From positions 57,015-121,014 of the IMG/VR virus record IMGVR_UViG_3300033073_000738: a stretch of DNA of 64,000 nt; one strand, written 5' to 3'. The notes under the pieces were generated by a model. It ran no database searches and was not told the DNA's origin. It saw nothing but the letters and a program-made list of their open reading frames with translations. Below, in pieces: positions 51,004-59,456 of the stretch (position 1 is its first letter; the number at the start of each line of letters is the position of its first letter). The stretch comes from a virus (Duplodnaviria; Caudoviricetes). The translations under genes were made by a program, and so were the position numbers.

Positions 51004-53754
51004 CTACTTTTTACCAGAGTCTGATTTTTTGACATCATATTTGTTCTTATTCTCCCTTGCCACCTCAAGATTTTTCTGAGCTATCTCACGTTGAACCTGG
51101 AGTTTTTCCTTATCAAGATTTAGCTTTTGGTTATTAAAAGCATTCTTGTTAACCTCTTGCTCACGTTTGAGGTTCATCTGGTCCTGATAATTACGCTGTT
51201 GCTGTATCTTTTCAAGTGCATCCTGGTAGTCAGATTGCTTATTCTCATTGAGATCTACCATGGCTCCATAACCAGCTGACCTAATCTCAGCAACTGTGAT
51301 ATCTTTTTGAATCATCTTGTCGTCACGCTCTGCAGCAGCTTGAATATCCATCTGCTTCTGCTTCTCTTGAGACTGAATCATCTCCTGTTGCATTTGCTGT
51401 TGTTGCTGCAATTCAGCTTGCTTCTGAGCTTGTATACGTTCTTCTGCTCCTTTCAATACGCCGGTGAGCTCACCAATAGACTCAGCTTTGATAATATTAC
51501 CCAGGTCAAATATGGAAGCACCACTTGTATTGTTATTCAACGCAAGCTGGCGCAGCTGCTCCATTACCTGACGTTGATTAGTCTTCGTTGTACAGAAGAT
51601 ATTGAAGTCGCGCAGTAGGAGATCTGTACCGTTTATCTGGAAATTCACCTTCTCATCCATTGAGGTGATATATTGCAACCTCAACGAGGGCTTTTTACTA
51701 TGGTAGTATTGAGCAAGATCTGTACGCATCTGATGCACACGAGGCATCAGGTAGTCTGAGTGCTGTATAAAATACTGCTCAGTTTGAGCATAAGAAGCAT
51801 TCATAGCTTGCTCTACAGCAGTGGCTGTTTGTTGTTGCGCTATCTGAGCACCCATACGTTGTGGATTCAGACCTATCACCTCAAAAGCCTGGTTCTTGAA
51901 ATAAGTGGCCAGTTGTATCCTGCTCATCAAACGATTAGTCTGCTCCAGATTGAGTACTTGGTAGTGCTGAAAGTTCAGCGCGTTCTCTGTATTAGTAATA
52001 GAAGTGTCCAGAGGAAGCATCTGAAAGTTCTTCATGGCCACATAAGCTTTAGCTAGGTTGTTCTTTCCCCAGTCTTCTCCCATAGAGTGACGAGGTAGAG
52101 CATTCTGGTCAAGCATAATAACTGTGCCGAGTTCATCCACCAGGATATCAGCTATCTGATTGTTTACGATGTTAAAACCAATCTGATAGGGTTTCATGAG
52201 ATCAACTAATGAAACTGAACGGGTGTTTCTATCCCCGAACACAGAACCCTCTACAGGAAGTTTACAACCGTAGAGAGTATTGTCCCCTTTAAACTGAAAA
52301 GGAACACGTCCGGGCTTTCCCCCATTCAATCCCAAATAGATAGGGTTGATTCCACCAGGGTTATTCATACCCCAGAAAGCTGGTCTATTAGGACCTATTT
52401 TTATACCACCCCATACTTCGTTAATCCAGATCCAATCTATGTGCTCACCAAAAATCAGGTTGTCTTTGGTTTTCTCTTTGTAAACGTTTGTATTGTACAA
52501 AGGCTTACTAATGGGTTTGTACTCTTCAGAAACAATGTCTTGTGTGAGCTCACCATTAGCATTTATTGTAGTGAGATGACCAATCTTACGTTGGCTTTTC
52601 CAGTAGATAGTGCTCACCCTTAGGAACTGAGCTTTACCATAATCAATGGTGTCCTCAGAATCTGATAGGATCCATTCTACAATGTCACCGGTGCCAAACT
52701 TACTGTCGTACAAACTCATGTATTGTCTGTACTGAAGACTCGGCATCTGTGTATTCCACTCATGACTCTTAGTTGCGTCATAATAACTACCGTCATTCTG
52801 GTATCCCTGTATAGCATAGCCGGCGGAACGAACTGGATATACAGCTTCTAGAGATTCTAATTGTTCTTGGGTCATCATCCACCCATACTTGTCTATGACG
52901 TCTGACACACTCATCATGTCCATCTTACCCACCCAGTTACCTTGTGAGATGTAACGAGTGTCAGGAGATTTATGATAGAATGTCAACGCAGGGTTCCATA
53001 GTTCAATTTCGTAGTCGTTCTCCATCATGTTGAAATGCCAGAATTCACGATCTACTGTGAGCATATCTCTAAAGCCACGCTCTTCGAGCTCTTGCATTTT
53101 AAATCGCTCTTCATCAACCCTCATTTGATGTGTGGCCCACTCTTCTACCATTGACCTGTAGTCTTTCTTGAAAAACTGCTCTATCTCAGGTAGAGATTTC
53201 AATGCCTCGGGACTAAGAGCTTGCTGAGCTTCTTCAGAATCTGGAGCCAAACCTTGTTGCATCAGTTGCATCATCACCTTCTGCTGAGCTTGTTGCATCA
53301 ACGTCTGCTCAATCATCATTCTCTTTTCCTCAAGCATCTCGTTGTAAGAGATGTCATCTATTGCCCTGAATACAATCTTAGAAGAACGCTTGCTGAATTC
53401 ATTTGCCAAAACGTTTATAACGCTAGGTATAATAGGGTAAAACTTTAACTCAAGTGCGGAAACGTCCTCTTTTGTAAGAGTGTCTATAAGCTCAGCTGCT
53501 TCGTTATCTTCTTCAACAATGTAATCTGTCTTGTCAATAATACCCTTAGCCAACTTATAATTCTTCAAGATCCTACGAGCATTTCTACGAAGCTGCTTCA
53601 TACCTTGAAACTCTAGCCAATCAAGGTTATGTGCACGCCATTCGTCATCCTTTTCTTTTTCAGTTAGAAATTGAATAGGTTGGGTAAGAGTACCCATCTT
53701 TTTATACTCAGCCTTTTTACCGGCTTTGAGGTCAAGGGCATTATATAGTTGCAT
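51004..53754 (-). CDS. Portal protein
   Basis: 916 aa; YPIIPSVINVL..E, WIWINEVWGG.KIG, CKLPVEG, SLVDLMKPYQ motifs and a Q-rich C-terminal coiled-coil; follows TerL. Confidence 0.9.
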   Translation of the reverse strand: MQLYNALDLKAGKKAEYKKMGTLTQPIQFLTEKEKDDEWRAHNLDWLEFQGMKQLRRNARRILKNYKLAKGIIDKTDYIVEEDNEAAELIDTLTKEDVSALELKFYPIIPSVINVLANEFSKRSSKIVFRAIDDISYNEMLEEKRMMIEQTLMQQAQQKVMMQLMQQGLAPDSEEAQQALSPEALKSLPEIEQFFKKDYRSMVEEWATHQMRVDEERFKMQELEERGFRDMLTVDREFWHFNMMENDYEIELWNPALTFYHKSPDTRYISQGNWVGKMDMMSVSDVIDKYGWMMTQEQLESLEAVYPVRSAGYAIQGYQNDGSYYDATKSHEWNTQMPSLQYRQYMSLYDSKFGTGDIVEWILSDSEDTIDYGKAQFLRVSTIYWKSQRKIGHLTTINANGELTQDIVSEEYKPISKPLYNTNVYKEKTKDNLIFGEHIDWIWINEVWGGIKIGPNRPAFWGMNNPGGINPIYLGLNGGKPGRVPFQFKGDNTLYGCKLPVEGSVFGDRNTRSVSLVDLMKPYQIGFNIVNNQIADILVDELGTVIMLDQNALPRHSMGEDWGKNNLAKAYVAMKNFQMLPLDTSITNTENALNFQHYQVLNLEQTNRLMSRIQLATYFKNQAFEVIGLNPQRMGAQIAQQQTATAVEQAMNASYAQTEQYFIQHSDYLMPRVHQMRTDLAQYYHSKKPSLRLQYITSMDEKVNFQINGTDLLLRDFNIFCTTKTNQRQVMEQLRQLALNNNTSGASIFDLGNIIKAESIGELTGVLKGAEERIQAQKQAELQQQQQMQQEMIQSQEKQKQMDIQAAAERDDKMIQKDITVAEIRSAGYGAMVDLNENKQSDYQDALEKIQQQRNYQDQMNLKREQEVNKNAFNNQKLNLDKEKLQVQREIAQKNLEVARENKNKYDVKKSDSGKK

Positions 53755-54001: not shown

Positions 54002-56197
54002 TTAGCGTAGATTTTTAAAAGCGTTTCTAGGAGGCCCCTGTTTTGTTGTAGAAGACCTACCCATATGTCTGAAAGGGCCCCAATTTAATTTACTGATTTT
54101 TTGAGAGTTCTCCAAGTTTTGGTTTGTATGCTCTACACGTTTACTATAGCCTCTATTTGACTGTTGTATTTTAGCAAAAGCAATTAGAGAACAGAATGCA
54201 ACCAACCGGTCAACGTTTAACCCGTCGTAGTAAGCTTGCATCTCTTTTAAAAGCATTGGGTCTGGGATGCGTTCCACCCCATAAGTGGTCTTAACTATCG
54301 TGCCGTCAGACTTGGTTTCAACGTCGAGCTCCTCTTTGATGTACTCGACCCCGTAGGAGAGCAAATTTCCCTTGAAAATTGTACCTACGTTCTTCCACCC
54401 ATATTCTTGGAAAACGTTCCTATTGGCTCCCAGATCCTTTAAAAAGGCTATCATGTCCTTGGGTACCAGGTAACGTTGCTTTTTACGGGAAATCATATAC
54501 TGAATGAACAGGGCAACGTTGTTTTCCACCACTGTCCAGGCGTTGTACCATTCTATGATGATTTCAAGACGTTCGTGTGTCTTGTTGATGTCGTCAAACC
54601 TACCGCACCAACTGGCTACAATACCATCCCTTTCTATATGATTTTCTACTTTACCGTCTCCCCCATCTTTAATAACTTCTACAGGGTTTTTGTAGACATA
54701 TATAGAACATAGAGATTCTGATGTTGTAGTTTTACCCTCTCCTACAGGATCTACAGAAGCGTAATACATACCAAATTGAGGGTCTTTAACCGGACGCTCG
54801 TAAATACATATGACACTTTCTTTATCCTCGGTCTTCTTAGAAATAGGAAACTCCATGATTGGTGTCTTCCTACTGGGTTTATCTACTATCTTACCGTCTG
54901 CGTTTCTGGACAGCTCTAAGTATTCAACTGAATACATCTTATCTGATATCCTCTGTAGTTGTTTAGAAACAAGATGTGAAGGAAACTTAGATTCTCTTCT
55001 GGTGGCAAAAGCCTCCATTATGTTTCTGGGATGCTGAGAAATCTCAAGCTGATAAGCCTCCGGTGTAAGATTTCTTTTAGCTTTTTCAAACTGCTCATCC
55101 AAAGCTTCTAAAGCTTCTTTAACCAAAGAATTGCCGTATTGATCTATATACGGAGGCATACTCCATTGTTCTGGTATGAACAACCCTGTTGTACCCACTG
55201 CACCGTCGCTGTCTATAAGATTGGAATCAACACCATAAAATCCATTCTCTTCGGGGTGGTATATATATTCTTTTAGCGGACCGCACTGGTCCAAGTCACC
55301 CACTGAACCAGCTGCTATAAATTGACCAGTGATGATATGACCAGACTTCAGGGCCGGTTTTATGAACCCATATGTGTCATTCATTTTAGGGGCAATACCT
55401 GCTTCTTCATGAAAGAAATAACTAACAGGACCACCGACACCGTTTGTAGGGTCTTTTTCGAATGTATAACCGGCTATAGTAGATTTTAAGCCTTTGTAGG
55501 TGTCACGTCCGTTGATTCTCACCTTGATCTTCTGCTCCCAGGCAAATATCTTTTCAGGTTCAGAAGGACGATACCATGCTGTATGTTCGTTGAGAAAGTT
55601 CTTATATTCATTGAGAAACTTCCAGGATCCTTTTTCGTTTATGTAGTCTTTTGCAGAAGCTCCCATTTTAAGTACAGCACCTTCTTCAAACCAATAGGTG
55701 TTAATGAGCTTTGCCATGTGGAAATAAGAGGAAGCTATCTGACGTTTCTTAAGAATGATGGCATGTTTGTAGTTGAGCTCAGCTAGATGCTCATATAAAG
55801 CCATGTGATACTGGGCATCTCTCACCTTGGCAAAGTCAAACCGCTTTTCTTCCTTGTCGTATATGGGAAGAAAGTTGAGCCACATGTAATAATCCCTGGT
55901 GATGTACCAGGATTTGCCCTCATTATTAACGATAATACCGTTTCTGCACTTGTTCTTCTGGTCATCCCAGTAGGATATAAAGTCTTTTGTCTTAACCGGT
56001 GCCGCACAATAGAAGCCTTGTTTCTGAAACTTTCTACCTTCTGAATTGAATACAACACTACTGTTGTCAAACTCATATTGACCTGGCTCTTTAAATATAG
56101 ACAGCAAATAGTCCCGGAATTCCTCCCGGGACTTGAAAGCTGTCACGCTCCATGAGCCGTTTTCATAGGTAGAGATTTCTTTAAAATTATTGCTCAC
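54002..56197 (-). CDS. terL: Terminase large subunit
   Basis: LKKRQIASS (Walker A variant), FFHEEAG (Walker B), YYASVDPV (RNase H-like nuclease), VENN, NVDRLVAF. Confidence 0.92.
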   Translation of the reverse strand: MSNNFKEISTYENGSWSVTAFKSREEFRDYLLSIFKEPGQYEFDNSSVVFNSEGRKFQKQGFYCAAPVKTKDFISYWDDQKNKCRNGIIVNNEGKSWYITRDYYMWLNFLPIYDKEEKRFDFAKVRDAQYHMALYEHLAELNYKHAIILKKRQIASSYFHMAKLINTYWFEEGAVLKMGASAKDYINEKGSWKFLNEYKNFLNEHTAWYRPSEPEKIFAWEQKIKVRINGRDTYKGLKSTIAGYTFEKDPTNGVGGPVSYFFHEEAGIAPKMNDTYGFIKPALKSGHIITGQFIAAGSVGDLDQCGPLKEYIYHPEENGFYGVDSNLIDSDGAVGTTGLFIPEQWSMPPYIDQYGNSLVKEALEALDEQFEKAKRNLTPEAYQLEISQHPRNIMEAFATRRESKFPSHLVSKQLQRISDKMYSVEYLELSRNADGKIVDKPSRKTPIMEFPISKKTEDKESVICIYERPVKDPQFGMYYASVDPVGEGKTTTSESLCSIYVYKNPVEVIKDGGDGKVENHIERDGIVASWCGRFDDINKTHERLEIIIEWYNAWTVVENNVALFIQYMISRKKQRYLVPKDMIAFLKDLGANRNVFQEYGWKNVGTIFKGNLLSYGVEYIKEELDVETKSDGTIVKTTYGVERIPDPMLLKEMQAYYDGLNVDRLVAFCSLIAFAKIQQSNRGYSKRVEHTNQNLENSQKISKLNWGPFRHMGRSSTTKQGPPRNAFKNLR

Positions 56198-56456
56198 GTG
56201 TTAGTTGATCAATTAGGGACGGATTACCATTAGTACGTTGTATAATTTCTACCAGAGTGGAGAAAGACTTGCTTCTAAGAATGCTCTTGTCAGCAATGTT
56301 TCCCCAGTAACCTAGATAACTATCCCGCGGAATAGCATTCCAGAGTTTTGTGTGATGATTGTAATGAAAGACGAAGTTGTATAGGGCTCCATCTTTGTCT
56401 GTAACATCAGCATCCGGTGTGTTTTCCAGGTCAGTGTATATTTCGTTCTTACTCAT
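56187..56456 (-). CDS. Hypothetical protein
   Basis: 89 aa from MSKNEIY; LYNFVFHYNHHTKLWNAIPR motif. Confidence 0.6.
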   Translation of the reverse strand: MSKNEIYTDLENTPDADVTDKDGALYNFVFHYNHHTKLWNAIPRDSYLGYWGNIADKSILRSKSFSTLVEIIQRTNGNPSLIDQLTREQ

Positions 56457-56461
56457 AGATG

Positions 56462-56995
56462 TTATTTGTAGCAGTCGTAAGGTCCATTTACAATAAGACA
56501 ATTGTTTCTAAGGCTGTCCCAGATAGGTTGTACACTACCATTTTCCTTAATACACTTGTCATACAATTCTTTTTTCACCCATTTTTCATTGTTCCATTTA
56601 ATACCAGAAGCATCGCCAAAGTAGAAATATGCAGCACCAGATAGAGAGATGAAGAGAAGAACATTGTATAAAAGAATCCTTGTATCAAGAAACTCAGGGA
56701 ACCAGCTTGCATATGTGTACTTGCCAATAAGAAGAGCAACAAATGCAATAAATAGAATAATAGCTGCGCAGACCGTCAACACCCTGTCTTCACGTTCATT
56801 TGCCCAGGTGACAGACTGTCCCCATGTAGGAGCTATTTGATAATAGGTGAGTTTCTCTTGAACGGGGTCATGAGCTCCTGGTAGAAGCACCCAATCACCA
56901 GCTTCAGTTTTCTGATCATGAATAACATTGTCAGGTGCGGTTCCACAAGAAACCATAACACTGATAAAAACGATTGCAAGAATCCAATTTTTCAT
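56462..56995 (-). CDS. Lipoprotein-signal membrane protein with two TM helices
   Basis: MKNWILAIVFISVMVS-C lipobox-like signal and two further hydrophobic segments. Confidence 0.65.
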   Translation of the reverse strand: MKNWILAIVFISVMVSCGTAPDNVIHDQKTEAGDWVLLPGAHDPVQEKLTYYQIAPTWGQSVTWANEREDRVLTVCAAIILFIAFVALLIGKYTYASWFPEFLDTRILLYNVLLFISLSGAAYFYFGDASGIKWNNEKWVKKELYDKCIKENGSVQPIWDSLRNNCLIVNGPYDCYK

Positions 56996-57018
56996 ATTTG
57001 TAGGTTTAAGTTAATCTG

Positions 57019-57176
57019 CTGTAAGGGGAGGAATCGAACCTCCACGTGGTCTTTAGGAACAGCACAAAGTGGGTGGTCAACCCCTGCAGTCACTTGCTGC
57101 TATATGCTGTCTTTATCAGAGAAAAACCCACACCCCCGAGACAAGAGGGTACGTCTGCCAATTTCGTCACCTCACA
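57019..57176 (-). tRNA. Atypical tRNA-like RNA, anticodon GUC (Asp), 89-nt variable arm
   Basis: Acceptor UGUGAGG/CCUUACA; D-arm ACG-AAAUUGGCAGA-CGU; anticodon arm CCCUC-UUGUCUC-GGGGG; T-arm GGAGG-UUCGAUU-CCUCC. Confidence 0.75.
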
Positions 57177-57258
57177 AGTTGGACTGTTCAAGACATATGT
57201 GACATACACCATCTTCATTTAGCAATACATCATGTATGTTGCAAATGTCTTTTTCCAT
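57172..57258 (-). CDS. 28-aa CxxH/CxxC micro zinc-finger peptide (MEKDICNIHDVLLNEDGVCHICLEQSNL)
   Basis: Read manually. Starts 2 nt after the upstream stop; its TGA lies inside the tRNA-like acceptor stem. Confidence 0.55.
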   Translation of the reverse strand: MEKDICNIHDVLLNEDGVCHICLEQSNL

Positions 57259-57260
57259 AG

Positions 57261-57647
57261 TTAATAATTGAATGTCAACATCTTTACTGCATTCATCTGA
57301 GCGTTTAAGACCTCACCGATTGTATGCTCGAATAGTTTTATTCTCAAATAAGATGAACTACGACGCCCTTCATTGTAGTGCTCATTGAGTAAATCAGCCA
57401 ATTCCGCACATAGTTCTTTTGCTCTTTGTACTTTAGGGTCACCTGAGGGATTGAATGTTAGCCCTACTAGTTGCTGTCCAAAAGTCAATTCTGGTGTTTG
57501 ATCCATATTTGTTGGTTTTAATTTTTTATAAGGACAATGTTTACAATTGTTGTTACAGCATTTACCACGCTGAAGATGGTATTCTTCTGTAAAGACCACC
57601 ATATCTCCGTCCATGTAATAGTGTACATCCTTGATAAACTCTTTCAT
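57261..57647 (-). CDS. DUF5522-like Cys-rich domain fused to an Acb2/Tad1-like helical-hairpin domain
   Basis: VFTEEYHLQRGKCCNNNCKHCPY, then TFGQQLVGLTFNPSGD...AQMNAVKMLTF. Likely start 57647 (TAATG overlap); internal ATG at 57506. Confidence 0.6.
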   Translation of the reverse strand: MKEFIKDVHYYMDGDMVVFTEEYHLQRGKCCNNNCKHCPYKKLKPTNMDQTPELTFGQQLVGLTFNPSGDPKVQRAKELCAELADLLNEHYNEGRRSSSYLRIKLFEHTIGEVLNAQMNAVKMLTFNY

Positions 57648-57712
57648 TACCGGTTGTTCTTTATCCATTGATAAATGGAGTTGATAATGTTCTGCACAAG
57701 ATTGTCATGCAT
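57647..57712 (-). CDS. 21-aa micropeptide (MHDNLVQNIINSIYQWIKNNR)
   Basis: Starts 2 nt after the thermonuclease stop; its TAA overlaps the next ATG. Confidence 0.4.
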   Translation of the reverse strand: MHDNLVQNIINSIYQWIKNNR

Positions 57713-57714
57713 CT

Positions 57715-58068
57715 TTATAGAATGTACTCTATTGCATACCCGTTGTCTACCAGCCACTGATTTAAGTGAAGGCTGTAGTCTTCACCACAATAGATGTCAA
57801 CCAGGGGTCGACCATACTTGTCCAGTTCACGAGATACTATCTTGATTTTAGATCCCGCTGGTAAATGCTCTTCTGTTTTAGCCTTGGCTTCTTTAGCAAG
57901 CTCTCTCACCTGTTTGTCTTTTGCTTTCAGCTCTGGTGTGTTAATACCATAGAATCTGCACGTGGATTTCCAGAAAATAGTAAAGCCCAGGTCAATGTTG
58001 AGCTCTACGGTGTCACCGTCTACTGTACGTAGTACGGTGGCTTCATAGGTGTATAAATTGTGTGTCAT
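57715..58068 (-). CDS. Thermonuclease (SNase-like)
   Basis: RTVDGDTV, RFYGINTPE, DKYGRPL, LNQWLVDNGYA. Confidence 0.9.
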   Translation of the reverse strand: MTHNLYTYEATVLRTVDGDTVELNIDLGFTIFWKSTCRFYGINTPELKAKDKQVRELAKEAKAKTEEHLPAGSKIKIVSRELDKYGRPLVDIYCGEDYSLHLNQWLVDNGYAIEYIL

Positions 58069-58071
58069 AGG

Positions 58072-58584
58072 TTATTGGTCGTAAGCGAGACTCTGCCCTC
58101 CTCTCACTGTAGATTGTTGTTCTTCCTCAAGGTCTCTAAGAGTGCCCTTAAAACTCTGTCTGATTGCTTCAAACTTTGCCGCTGCATTAACAAGTGCTGT
58201 GATATTACCATCTCTACCATGCTCAATCTCTGTGGTCTCCATATACTTAGCCAAACGGTCAAGCATACTTTTGATACCTGCGTAGGCCCTATATGTGGGA
58301 GTTTCGTAGAGCTTCTTGCATAGTTTAATAGCCTCGGTAATAAGATCGTCATCAGTTGAAAAGTCTGCGTCAATCTCTTTAAGAACAAGCTCCTCTTTAT
58401 CTGTTTCAGGGACATCAAAAAACGGGTTCAAATCAGGGTTGGGACAAGTCATGTAGAACACGTAAGCATACACTTTGGTAGCTTCTTCTCCATAGTTGTC
58501 CATAATAGCTTTTAAACTACTCAAGGTGTAGCAGTGTTCTGAGGGCATCACCTTGCCGTTTAGTATATCAAATAGTCTTACCAT
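58072..58584 (-). CDS. Conserved crAss-like protein, candidate terminase small subunit
   Basis: 170 aa from MVRLFDI; helical; C-terminal VRGG motif; upstream of TerL. Confidence 0.45.
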   Translation of the reverse strand: MVRLFDILNGKVMPSEHCYTLSSLKAIMDNYGEEATKVYAYVFYMTCPNPDLNPFFDVPETDKEELVLKEIDADFSTDDDLITEAIKLCKKLYETPTYRAYAGIKSMLDRLAKYMETTEIEHGRDGNITALVNAAAKFEAIRQSFKGTLRDLEEEQQSTVRGGQSLAYDQ

Positions 58585-58828
58585 CTTGTTTCCATGTTGA
58601 TGGGACATCTACGTCCCAACTGTTGCCGTTCATAGGGTTATCATAGATTCTGATATCATCAGAATAATAGTGTTTTACATAGCCTCCTCGAAGTCTTACC
58701 ACCCAGGTGGTGTTGACGTTTACACCATAGTCGATCATCAAATAAGCTTCTCCTTCACCGTGTGGTGTTAATACAGGAAGAGGGGTGGCAAATTCATGAA
58801 CTGTAGATCTATTTGTACTCATATTCAA
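58568..58828 (-). CDS. Hypothetical protein
   Basis: PLPVLTPHGEGEAYLMIDYG...WVV small beta protein. Confidence 0.6.
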   Translation of the reverse strand: MNMSTNRSTVHEFATPLPVLTPHGEGEAYLMIDYGVNVNTTWVVRLRGGYVKHYYSDDIRIYDNPMNGNSWDVDVPSTWKQDGKTI

Positions 58829-59456
58829 GGATTTTACCTACTAAGTCAGACCGGTGGTTTTCTTTGAGCTTAATCCATTTGATCTCTTGTATCTTTTTAG
58901 AGAGTTCAATAGCATAACTCAAACCGTTGTATTCGTCTTTGATATCTTTCTGCTCGTTGTCCCCATTGACAATTATCTTACCTGTCTTTCCCAATCTCGT
59001 AAGCACGGCTAACATCTGAGCTTTAGTCATATTTTGTGCTTCTTCCACAATAAGAACATCATCTATGGTTTTACCCCTTATGAACTGCACCGGCATGGCT
59101 GTCACTTTCTTATCATTTACCAGCTCTTGCACCCGGGTTTTATCAATACATTTCTGAAGGTTCTCTATAAAAGCTTCCAGATAGGGGTTGAATTTCTCAT
59201 CAAGGTTTCCTGGTAGTAAACCAAGGGATGCTCCCACTTCTATAGTTGCCCTGGTTACAAGTATCTGATCGATCTGTTTCTGAAAGAGAAAATCAAGAGC
59301 AACTTGAGCACTTACAAGAGATTTGCCGCTACCAGCTCTACCCGTAATAATTACAATCTGGTTTTCCCTAATAAGCTTCTTGGCTTCCTTTTGTTCATCA
59401 TTCAATTGTACACCAAACTTTATCTCATTCTTCCTCACTCTATTGGGCTCTTTCAT
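58809..59456 (-). CDS. phoH: PhoH-family ATPase
   Basis: GRAGSGKS Walker A, FIRGKT, IVEEAQN, LTRLG, GDNEQKD, HRS. Confidence 0.92.
   Translation of the reverse strand: MKEPNRVRKNEIKFGVQLNDEQKEAKKLIRENQIVIITGRAGSGKSLVSAQVALDFLFQKQIDQILVTRATIEVGASLGLLPGNLDEKFNPYLEAFIENLQKCIDKTRVQELVNDKKVTAMPVQFIRGKTIDDVLIVEEAQNMTKAQMLAVLTRLGKTGKIIVNGDNEQKDIKDEYNGLSYAIELSKKIQEIKWIKLKENHRSDLVGKILEYEYK

Follow-up and report, generated by a model that had tools for sequence, protein, structure and literature searches.

Accessory or anti-defence hotspots are a known kind of phage locus, and the families found in them include sponge proteins of the Acb2/Tad1 type. These form homo-hexamers whose ligand pockets lie between the N-terminal regions, bind cyclic oligonucleotides or gcADPR, and protect phages from CBASS or Thoeris. 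In Acb2 the ligand-binding residues include Y11 and K26 (PMC10312549). Phage-encoded tRNAs have also been set against tRNA-targeting defences, as with the tRNAs of T5 against PARIS and against the retron PtuAB, including tRNAs with variant anticodon loops (PMC10264068, PMC11464382, PMC11555353). Allo-tRNAs are class-II-like and include GUC species (PMC5389517, PMC7609411); Mukai et al. (2017) described G73, a long variable arm and non-serine anticodons in these RNAs, with GUC among the commonest (PMC5389517). Here we analysed a stretch of 64,000 nucleotides (nt), hereafter the window, which is the last 64 kb of the 121-kb IMG/VR virus record IMGVR_UViG_3300033073_000738 (CheckV completeness estimate 93%), and within it a compact segment directly upstream of the large terminase gene (TerL) that encodes an SNase-family nuclease, two peptides of 21 and 28 amino acids (aa), a fusion of DUF5522 with an Acb2/Tad1-like domain, a tRNA-like RNA and a lipoprotein (Table 1). 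We favour, with moderate confidence, the explanation that this segment is the cargo of a hypervariable hotspot between a 178-aa and an 89-aa core gene, made up of exchangeable cassettes of which several plausibly serve counter-defence. What is new in this known kind of locus is the DUF5522-sponge fusion, the SNase that tracks sponge genes, and a tRNA-Asp-like RNA with a giant structured arm.

The evidence that carries this explanation comes from related genomes. We retrieved 80 related loci with TerL and added loci from a pattern scan for the RNA, which gave 84 non-redundant intervals, each bounded on one side by the end of the 178-aa gene and on the other by the 89-aa gene, or by TerL if no 89-aa gene was detected. 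Across the 80 related loci the 178-aa gene, the 89-aa gene, TerL and the portal gene formed the core, and the genes between were variable. Interval length ranged from 8 to 2413 nt among 65 loci and varied approximately 20-fold across the 84 non-redundant relatives, which showed 26 architectures with shuffled cargo order. The tRNA-like RNA, present in 61 intervals, was the sole cargo in 24; 15 were empty, 10 held a relocated PhoH gene with the RNA, 9 held a ~200-aa PD-(D/E)xK-looking gene with the RNA, and the remaining intervals held mixed cargo. The gene set of the window recurred in loci L006 and L199, and loci L009 and L190 resembled it, with an Acb2-like gene that stands alone, unfused to DUF5522 (in L190 the two are separate genes). 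Cargo order differed each time (in L006 it is 28-aa peptide, RNA, lipoprotein, SNase, 21-aa peptide, fusion), cargo lay on either side of the RNA, and the SNase block had switched sides between the window and L006.

Recognised counter-defence families were part of this cargo. Tad2-like genes (PF11195) in the intervals of L078, L030 and L051 scored 82-87 bits and a 68-aa standalone Acb2_Tad1_hairpin protein (PF24729) in L009 scored 46.8 bits, all above the Pfam threshold; other relatives carried RyR-domain, DUF6428 and glycosyltransferase-like proteins, the RyR-domain genes neighbouring Acb2-like genes in L190 and L194. The interval therefore joins hypervariable content and conserved flanks with recognised counter-defence families, and because the Tad2-like and Acb2/Tad1-hairpin genes of relatives exceed the Pfam threshold, it is a plausible counter-defence hotspot. 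An initial annotation of the window had described a candidate counter-defence module at this place. Every component that it listed was found again (SNase, 21-aa gene, fusion, 28-aa gene, RNA, lipoprotein and 89-aa gene), the tight packing that it noted was likewise seen, and TerL was confirmed by its PHROG match (Table 1). The counter-defence part of that proposal gained from the hypervariable setting and from the Tad2-like and Acb2/Tad1 families; its further claim, of a combined RNA-plus-protein unit, was contradicted by the distribution of the parts, as described below.

Table 1. Coordinates of the hotspot cargo and its flanking core genes in the window
Feature	Position	Strand	Remarks
178-aa core protein (upstream flank)	58072..58608	-	Conserved, 55-95% identity in relatives
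SNase-family (thermonuclease-like) nuclease, 117 aa	57715..58068	-	PF00565, phrog_452
21-aa peptide gene, MHDNLVQNIINSIYQWIKNNR	57647..57712	-	2 nt after SNase stop; 1-nt overlap (TAATG) with fusion start
Fusion, 128 aa	57261..57647	-	N-terminal DUF5522 (CX3CX2C) and C-terminal Acb2/Tad1-hairpin-like domain, ~residues 48-128
28-aa CxxH...CxxC zinc-knuckle-like peptide (ZnF28)	57172..57258	-	Starts 2 nt after fusion stop
tRNA-like RNA, class-II type, 158 nt	57019..57176	-	Covariation-supported cloverleaf; starts inside last codons of ZnF28
Membrane lipoprotein, 177 aa	56462..56995	-	Read from sequence: signal peptide ending VMVSC, lipobox VMVS|C, two hydrophobic helices
89-aa core gene (from its ATG)	56187..56456	-	End overlaps TerL start; not accessory
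Large terminase (TerL), downstream flank	54002..56197	-	phrog_6681, E 1.6e-66
Portal	51004-53754	-	PHROG family 6547

The Cys-rich N-terminus of the fusion matched DUF5522 with E 1.2e-16. Its annotated 135-aa start is not conserved, L006 having a stop there. Within this interval, relatives carry DUF5522 either joined to the Acb2-like domain or as a gene of its own. The C-terminal domain (C-domain) belongs to a family of more than 700 homologues, mostly standalone proteins of 75-90 aa, with 1104 clusters at 50% identity (E <= 1e-3), and PF24729 was the sole Pfam family that recurred on the shared domain (14 of 31 members, and 5 of 68 at E <= 1e-3 in a second set). BLASTP aligned the C-domain to the PF24729-positive protein of L009 (L009:1617-1823) with 35% identity (E 1e-8), and searches of PHROGs, NCBIfam and PADLOC with the C-domain gave no match. 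The Acb2-like domain was also often the C-terminal module of longer proteins (P0153, P0206 and others), with WDGH, RyR, crAss001_48-related or methyltransferase partners at the N-terminus.

An AF2 model of the C-domain (pLDDT 89.8) consisted of a short helix and a long helical hairpin (H9-14, H24-46 and H53-78). Re-ranking with VIA placed T4 Vs.4 at the top (7uq2_A; Z 6.9, root-mean-square deviation 2.8, 63 residues), in a tie with unrelated helical hairpins, and Acb2 (8h2x) at Z 6.0, so that the modelled fold is compatible with the Acb2/Tad1 hairpin but does not discriminate it. The C-domain was predicted to form a homodimer with an ipSAE of 0.77, against 0.01 for the best control; in the calibration of the tool, 20 of 30 proteins whose solved structures pair two copies of one chain scored this high, as did 1 of 23 with single-chain structures. 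Contacts agreed to 100% among three runs with a partner pLDDT of at least 90, and the predicted interface lay on helices 25-81, leaving the N-terminal region free, all of which supports a C-domain homodimer at the level of modelling. The invariant QRAKEL of the family (K30) resembles the NRVKEL of Acb2 around the ligand-contacting K26, and two phenylalanines, the invariant F18 and the near-invariant F9, are candidates for stacking, although their spacing differs from that in Acb2 by at least 3 residues. We treat the C-domain as a putative distant member of the Acb2/Tad1 superfamily, from sequence and model together, and regard the fusion as a probable oligomeric nucleotide-signal sponge.

The nuclease encoded at the upstream end of the segment matched PF00565 (E 2e-10, 41.5 bits, cut-off 21) and the endonuclease family phrog_452 (E 9e-28), and its match to an SNc-containing model was the sole PADLOC match among the island genes. 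In staphylococcal nuclease the catalytic residues are Arg35, Glu43 and Arg87, and Asp21 and Asp40 bind Ca; here the motifs DGDT, R-x-x-G-I-N-T-P-E and DKYGR could be read by eye, with the catalytic Arg, Glu and Arg present. SNase genes were present in 13 of the 84 intervals, 10 of which also held a sponge-family gene; SNase alone was found in 3 intervals, a sponge gene alone in 1 and neither in 70 (Fisher p = 1e-9, uncorrected for phylogeny). The SNase thus accompanied the sponge gene, whether Acb2-like or Tad2-like, in 10 of 11 cases, usually adjacent to it and in either order, and this was the one strong, non-random pairing in the hotspot.

The two micro-genes appear to be real. All 9 nucleotide differences between the 21-aa open reading frame (ORF) and its counterpart in L006 are synonymous in frame, which indicates that it is a coding gene; the peptide had no match in PHROGs, NCBIfam or PADLOC. 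A homologue of the 28-aa ORF was found in L006 only, and there C6, H9, C19, C22 and the C-terminal CLEQ.NL are kept at ~60% nucleotide identity. Because the four Cys/His ligands persist despite this level of DNA identity, the comparison supports the 28-aa ORF as a gene, for which Pfam, PHROGs, NCBIfam and PADLOC gave no family match. Its TGA stop occupies positions 3-5 of the tRNA-like RNA. The lipoprotein gene starts 23 nt downstream of the RNA and was found in 7 of the 84 intervals at 39-62% identity, with the RNA directly upstream in 7/7; Pfam, PHROGs, NCBIfam and PADLOC searches found no match for it, and the protein Atlas no usable one.

Several observations weigh against a sponge-bearing counter-defence cargo, in addition to the VIA tie and the missing phylogenetic correction of the SNase-sponge test. 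The fusion scored 14.8 bits against PF24729 (E 0.033; 15.3 bits in the scan of its own genome), below the gathering threshold of 27, where T4 Vs.4 scores 71.4 bits. Foldseek gave no significant match for the C-domain model, and the C-domain family profile found nothing among PDB sequences. In hhalign the same profile could not be aligned with T4 Vs.4 as a single sequence, and the link to bona fide PF24729 members, although homology to them is detectable from sequence, is for this reason transitive. The island sits in an apparent packaging/structural operon, whereas counter-defence genes are usually early genes. Finally, the SNase has Asn at the position of Asp40 and may be only weakly active.

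The most widespread element of the hotspot was the tRNA-like RNA, which was found by the pattern scan in at least 120 viral contigs. In the window copy, the first acceptor pairs are U1:A72 and G2:C71, the D stem has 3 bp, the anticodon loop is UUGUCUC (GUC, U37, C38), and an 89-nt multi-helix variable arm is followed by a canonical T arm and G73. Among 33 homologues the cloverleaf was paired in 97.7% of cells, and 19 of 25 pairs showed compensatory changes; none of 500 shuffles was as good, and sliding the 3' partner by 1-3 columns reduced pairing to 42-60%. Covariation supports all five helices. The acceptor stem has 7 bp and the T stem 5 bp, with compensatory changes in 4 of the 5 T-stem pairs and a fifth pair that never varies. 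Invariant in the alignment are U1:A72, G2:C71, U3:A70, U8, G9, the D-loop GG, G34-U35-C36-U37-C38, the T loop and G73. Across 81 distinct copies, U37 within the invariant GUCUC of the anticodon loop and C74 after G73 were present in all, CCA was encoded in 3, and position 33 held U (69 copies), G (6), A (4) or C (2). Some copies had been collected with a pattern fixing GTCTC; those found independently of it have the same loop.

Standard tools missed the window copy, for which ARAGORN made no call and RF00005 gave no match, the sole Rfam match being tRNA-Sec at 17.6 bits on the 3' part; the energy of its single-sequence fold was not unusual (z = -0.36). Homologues of 85-96 nt were called by ARAGORN as tRNA-Asp(gtc) with a long variable arm, and the 109-nt copy of L052 matched RF00005 at 39.1 bits. 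All length variation lay in the variable arm, which measured 15-247 nt in the 81 copies (median 76 nt). In the subclass of the window, the 89-nt arm comprises a GUGG/CCAC stem at its base, a conserved internal loop in which CUGAUAAAG faces CCUAAAG, a covarying second stem (ACAGAA:UUCUGU, ACAGCA:UGCUGU, CUAGA:UCUAG, UCUGA:UCAGA and CAGGA:UCCUG), optional hairpins and a conserved GG(G/A)UUGACCA(C/U)C element. The long-arm stems P1 and P2, which were read directly from the sequences, covary; given 12 long copies, RNAalifold missed the helices of the variable arm because the 3' strands were misaligned. An intron was rejected as the nature of the 89-nt insert, which is too short for group I, lies at the variable-arm position with graded lengths of 15-247 nt and has covarying stems; tmRNA and YrlA-type mimics were ruled out by the intact anticodon arm.

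Another subclass carries an extra D-loop hairpin of 19-22 nt whose loop repeats the GUCUC(AG) of the anticodon loop (L021:5199-5367, L022:247-415, L048:2867-3035, L035:5406-5575, L034:4790-4956 and L049:5535-5701). Because one RNA here presents two GUCUC loops, the comparison suggests that the motif is a binding site. The anticodon arm is followed by GGGUUUUUCUC solely in the window and in L006, and this site (window 57129-57153, minus strand) was scored as intrinsic-terminator-like; the U run after the anticodon arm is missing in other lineages. The site may dampen read-through towards the lipoprotein and TerL genes, or may reflect chance. In the terminator and promoter scan as a whole, counts were not above chance (4 vs 2.2 +/- 1.2 and 6 vs 9.3, respectively).

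Further tRNA-shaped RNAs were seen in these genomes. Outside the window, the same record holds a 117-nt RF00005 match (G000:C1:481-597, locus L001; 31.4 bits) with ~51 nt in place of the anticodon loop, and a 70-nt tRNA (G000:C1:682-751) for which ARAGORN reports a 2-nt 'anticodon', so that the phage seems to carry only non-standard tRNA-shaped RNAs. In the genome of L004 (G005), an 88-nt class-II-like tRNA (L202:1501-1588; ARAGORN Val-gac) has a poor anticodon stem and shares its 3' end with G000:C1:481-597. About 330 nt downstream, after a small inserted ORF, stands a duplicated 3' fragment, ACAGGTTCGAATCCTGTTCTGACTAC, an arrangement resembling what an insertion into a tRNA gene would leave behind. 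Neither RtcB nor the CCA-adding enzyme was found in a search of the phage's own genome.

How the parts are distributed bears on whether the segment is one unit. The initial annotation had proposed that the sponge, the tRNA-like RNA (as a candidate tRNA decoy) and the small peptides form a single co-selected anti-defence unit, expressed with the terminase, portal and capsid proteins as triggers of defence. In keeping with this, neighbouring genes are separated or overlapped by 1-2 nt and the 28-aa ORF ends inside the RNA; SNase, fusion, RNA and lipoprotein occur together in the window, L006 and L199, L009 has its standalone Acb2-like gene in place of the fusion, and L190 has the Acb2-like and DUF5522 parts as separate genes. 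Moreover, all 11 sponge-bearing intervals contained the RNA, against a base rate of 61/84 (73%; Fisher p = 0.03, uncorrected for relatedness). However, the gene-neighbourhood comparison across relatives showed the components to assort independently. The RNA occurred without a sponge gene in 50 of its 61 intervals, often as the sole cargo, and in 48 of 116 further contigs it stood in other phage lineages with no TerL or 178-aa gene of this clade nearby, no shared protein neighbour emerging. Part order differed in nearly every genome, and the sponge family, with more than 1000 clusters, is mostly standalone and in other contexts. Independent assortment has largely refuted the proposal already, and we hold a single unit to be very improbable; co-expression with the structural triggers we infer solely from the tight packing. 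A different account, in which selfish mobile cassettes and not selection for counter-defence built the hotspot, and free-standing nucleases (the SNase and, in relatives, the ~200-aa PD-(D/E)xK-like protein) act like homing endonucleases on the highly conserved tRNA-like gene, dragging cargo with them, is distinctly unlikely, yet some observations speak for it. Two unrelated nuclease-type genes adjoin the RNA upstream, often with the stop codon in its first 5 nt, cargo stands on both sides of the RNA, the SNase block has switched sides between the window and L006, and the RNA 5' half is the piece most widely shared among co-occurring phages, in differing contexts. On the other hand, one of these nucleases is assigned to PD-(D/E)xK only from a motif read by eye, the protein having no family match, homing would leave the enrichment of the cargo in sponge families unexplained, and no SNase-fold homing endonucleases are known.

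The RNA itself may be read in two ways. The identity set of aspartyl-tRNA synthetase (AspRS) in Escherichia coli is G73, G2:C71, G34-U35-C36 and C38, and the RNA retains every one of these positions. Decoding tRNAs carry, with essentially no exceptions, a purine at position 37, and the loop of a decoding-competent tRNA has U33 with it; the RNA never has that purine and does not always have U33, and the pyrimidine at 37 together with the variable position 33 argues for poor decoding. One explanation, doubtful although a serious contender, is that the RNA is a working phage tRNA-Asp, or a serine-charged class-II missense tRNA of the allo-tRNA kind, which supplements or replaces a host tRNA, the protein genes being unrelated morons; as one instance, the altered anticodon loop and large variable arm would let it escape a host tRNA-cleaving defence. 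The fully covarying cloverleaf, the invariance of the AspRS identity positions and the acceptance of shorter homologues as tRNA by ARAGORN and Rfam all favour it. Against it stand the invariant U37, the 12 of 81 copies with a base other than U at position 33, variable arms of 76-247 nt and D-loop insertions with a second GUCUC that are unprecedented for ribosomal substrates, and a first pair of U1:A72 where the identity set of seryl-tRNA synthetase has G1:C72. Precedents for a working tRNA exist in the phage anticodon-loop variants documented to evade anticodon nucleases (PMC10264068) and in the class-II-like GUC-anticodon tRNAs among allo-tRNAs (PMC5389517).

For this RNA, efficient decoding is therefore the less likely role, and mimicry of tRNA-Asp to engage a tRNA-binding protein the more likely one. 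A broader proposal, which in its full form we think unlikely, is that the family constitutes undescribed and widespread phage tRNA-Asp mimics, which, without decoding, would bait or inhibit a host protein recognising the GUC loop, the hotspot thereby joining RNA-based to protein-based counter-defence. Candidates for this host protein are a defence nuclease that cleaves tRNA, AspRS and a queuine-type modifier, and the expanded variable arm, in some lineages with the second GUCUC hairpin in the D loop, would make the RNA non-decoding.

Returning to the explanation that we favour, of exchangeable cassettes in a hypervariable hotspot, its basis is the gene content, the behaviour of the interval, the homologies, the structure of the RNA and the predicted self-association of the C-domain; what we infer beyond them is ligand binding, anti-defence activity, processing and charging of the RNA, and the host. 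The C-domain would self-assemble and most likely sequester the nucleotide signals used in immunity of the CBASS, Thoeris, Pycsar or type III CRISPR type, with DUF5522 as a small CX3CX2C putative metal-binding module ahead of the sponge domain. The SNase, as the usual neighbour of whichever sponge gene is present (Acb2-like or Tad2-like), probably either serves in that gene's conflict or shares a cassette with it, and the lipoprotein is probably a membrane moron with exclusion or envelope functions. The tRNA-like RNA would be a separate and much more widespread element around which cargo accumulates. It is predicted to fold as an L-shaped class-II tRNA and is presumably cut from a polycistronic transcript by RNase P and 3'-end processing enzymes. 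Genes that precede the RNA (ZnF28, SNase and the PD-(D/E)xK-like gene) often have their stop codon at RNA positions 3-5, as UGUAA, UGUAG or UGUGA, and therefore RNase P excision would cut those messages at or before the stop codon.

Other cargo and side observations concern the same interval. A PhoH-like ATPase gene lies upstream of the 178-aa gene in the window (58809-59456), and in 12 of the 84 relatives (L019, L035, L036, L060, L089 and others) it is inside the hotspot, ending 6-10 nt before the RNA. Proteins of ~190-220 aa with a PD..(D/E)xK-like motif (..PDL...G[VI]K[TG]..) adjoin the 5' side of the RNA at L031:5090-5731, at L091:6060-6710 and in 11 other intervals, often ending inside its first 5-10 nt; Pfam, NCBIfam and PADLOC searches with this protein gave no match. 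Summed contig depth in four freshwater or aquatic runs showed a 2- to 10-fold peak at window 57092-57182, over the RNA 5' half, and the contigs have loose ends to either side of the peak.

The freshwater phage that carries the window is a divergent crAss-like phage, as judged from TerL, which is 25-27% identical to the TerL proteins of crAss-like and Flavobacterium phages, and these relatives suggest that its host is probably a member of the Bacteroidota. TerL was 72-85% identical to those of the 80 IMG/VR relatives, the large genes of the window are all on the minus strand, and the public runs that contain the stretch are labelled as freshwater, aquatic, riverine or lake metagenomes; no RNA source is listed among them, the one 'RNA-Seq' library being probably DNA. 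The region had no blastn match among 50,697 isolated phage genomes. The 89-aa gene was directly upstream of TerL in 78 of 84 relatives, is translationally coupled to it, and had no family match in Pfam, PHROGs, NCBIfam or PADLOC. The 178-aa gene had been labelled TerS-like, a label that found no support: Pfam, PHROG, NCBIfam and PADLOC searches gave no match, an AF2 model (pLDDT 69) had no Foldseek match to TerS or to another protein at E <= 0.001, and the protein Atlas returned viral hypothetical proteins only. A 104-aa alternative-frame ORF within this gene (window 58104-58418, minus strand) appears 'conserved' in 31 relatives; the simplest explanation is conservation of the 178-aa gene that it overlaps, and it could mislead gene callers.

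For environmental crAss-like phages, whose anti-defence functions have hardly been studied by experiment, the analysis maps a putative counter-defence hotspot by comparison across relatives. The Acb2/Tad1 superfamily would gain a large divergent branch (more than 1000 clusters at 50% identity) in which the sponge domain is often C-terminal in fusions (DUF5522, RyR, WDGH and others), and an SNase-type nuclease keeps recurring together with both Acb2-like and Tad2-like genes. Least expected is a family of tRNA-shaped RNAs in at least 120 viral contigs that standard tRNA finders miss, with arms of up to 247 nt and a loop that does not look like a decoding one. This family offers a testable case of phage tRNA mimics, beyond tRNAs, acting against tRNA-directed immunity, and if the mimic proposal were true, one locus would hold RNA-based and protein-based counter-defence, a nuclease and interchangeable signal sponges.

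Of the described RNAs, allo-tRNAs are the closest, being alike in the long variable arm, G73, a GUC anticodon on a class-II body and doubtful normal decoding. They differ in having 8/4 or 9/3 acceptor/T-stem arrangements where this RNA has 7/5, and the present RNA is phage-borne, with a far longer (median 76 nt) and multi-helical arm and an invariant U37. It shares with defence-evading phage tRNAs a phage-encoded tRNA shape, a non-standard anticodon loop and a genome with few or no ordinary tRNAs, whereas those tRNAs are of normal size and decode and have no described giant variable arm or D-loop insertion, and no defence that targets tRNA-Asp has been linked to the present locus. The C-domain resembles Acb2 (PaMx33 Acb2 and T4 Vs.4) and Tad1 in its size of ~80 aa, its short helix and antiparallel hairpin, its predicted self-association, its widespread phage homologues and its setting, the same interval elsewhere holding Tad2-like and bona fide PF24729 genes; it also has an R-x-K-E-L motif at the start of helix 2, comparable to the region around K26 in Acb2. 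It differs from them in its sub-threshold Pfam score, its ~10-14% identity to solved structures, a conserved TFNPSGD loop that has no described counterpart, and its fusion to a DUF5522 CX3CX2C module, or in other members to WDGH, RyR, crAss001_48 or methyltransferase domains. As a whole, the locus is like the phage anti-defence islands of the Acr/Aca, Tad and Acb kinds in its conserved flanks, extreme variation in length and content, small packed genes and sponge families. It departs from them in lying directly upstream of TerL in a crAss-like phage, in being organised around a conserved gene for a tRNA-like RNA, and in having a nuclease as the near-constant companion of its sponge genes.

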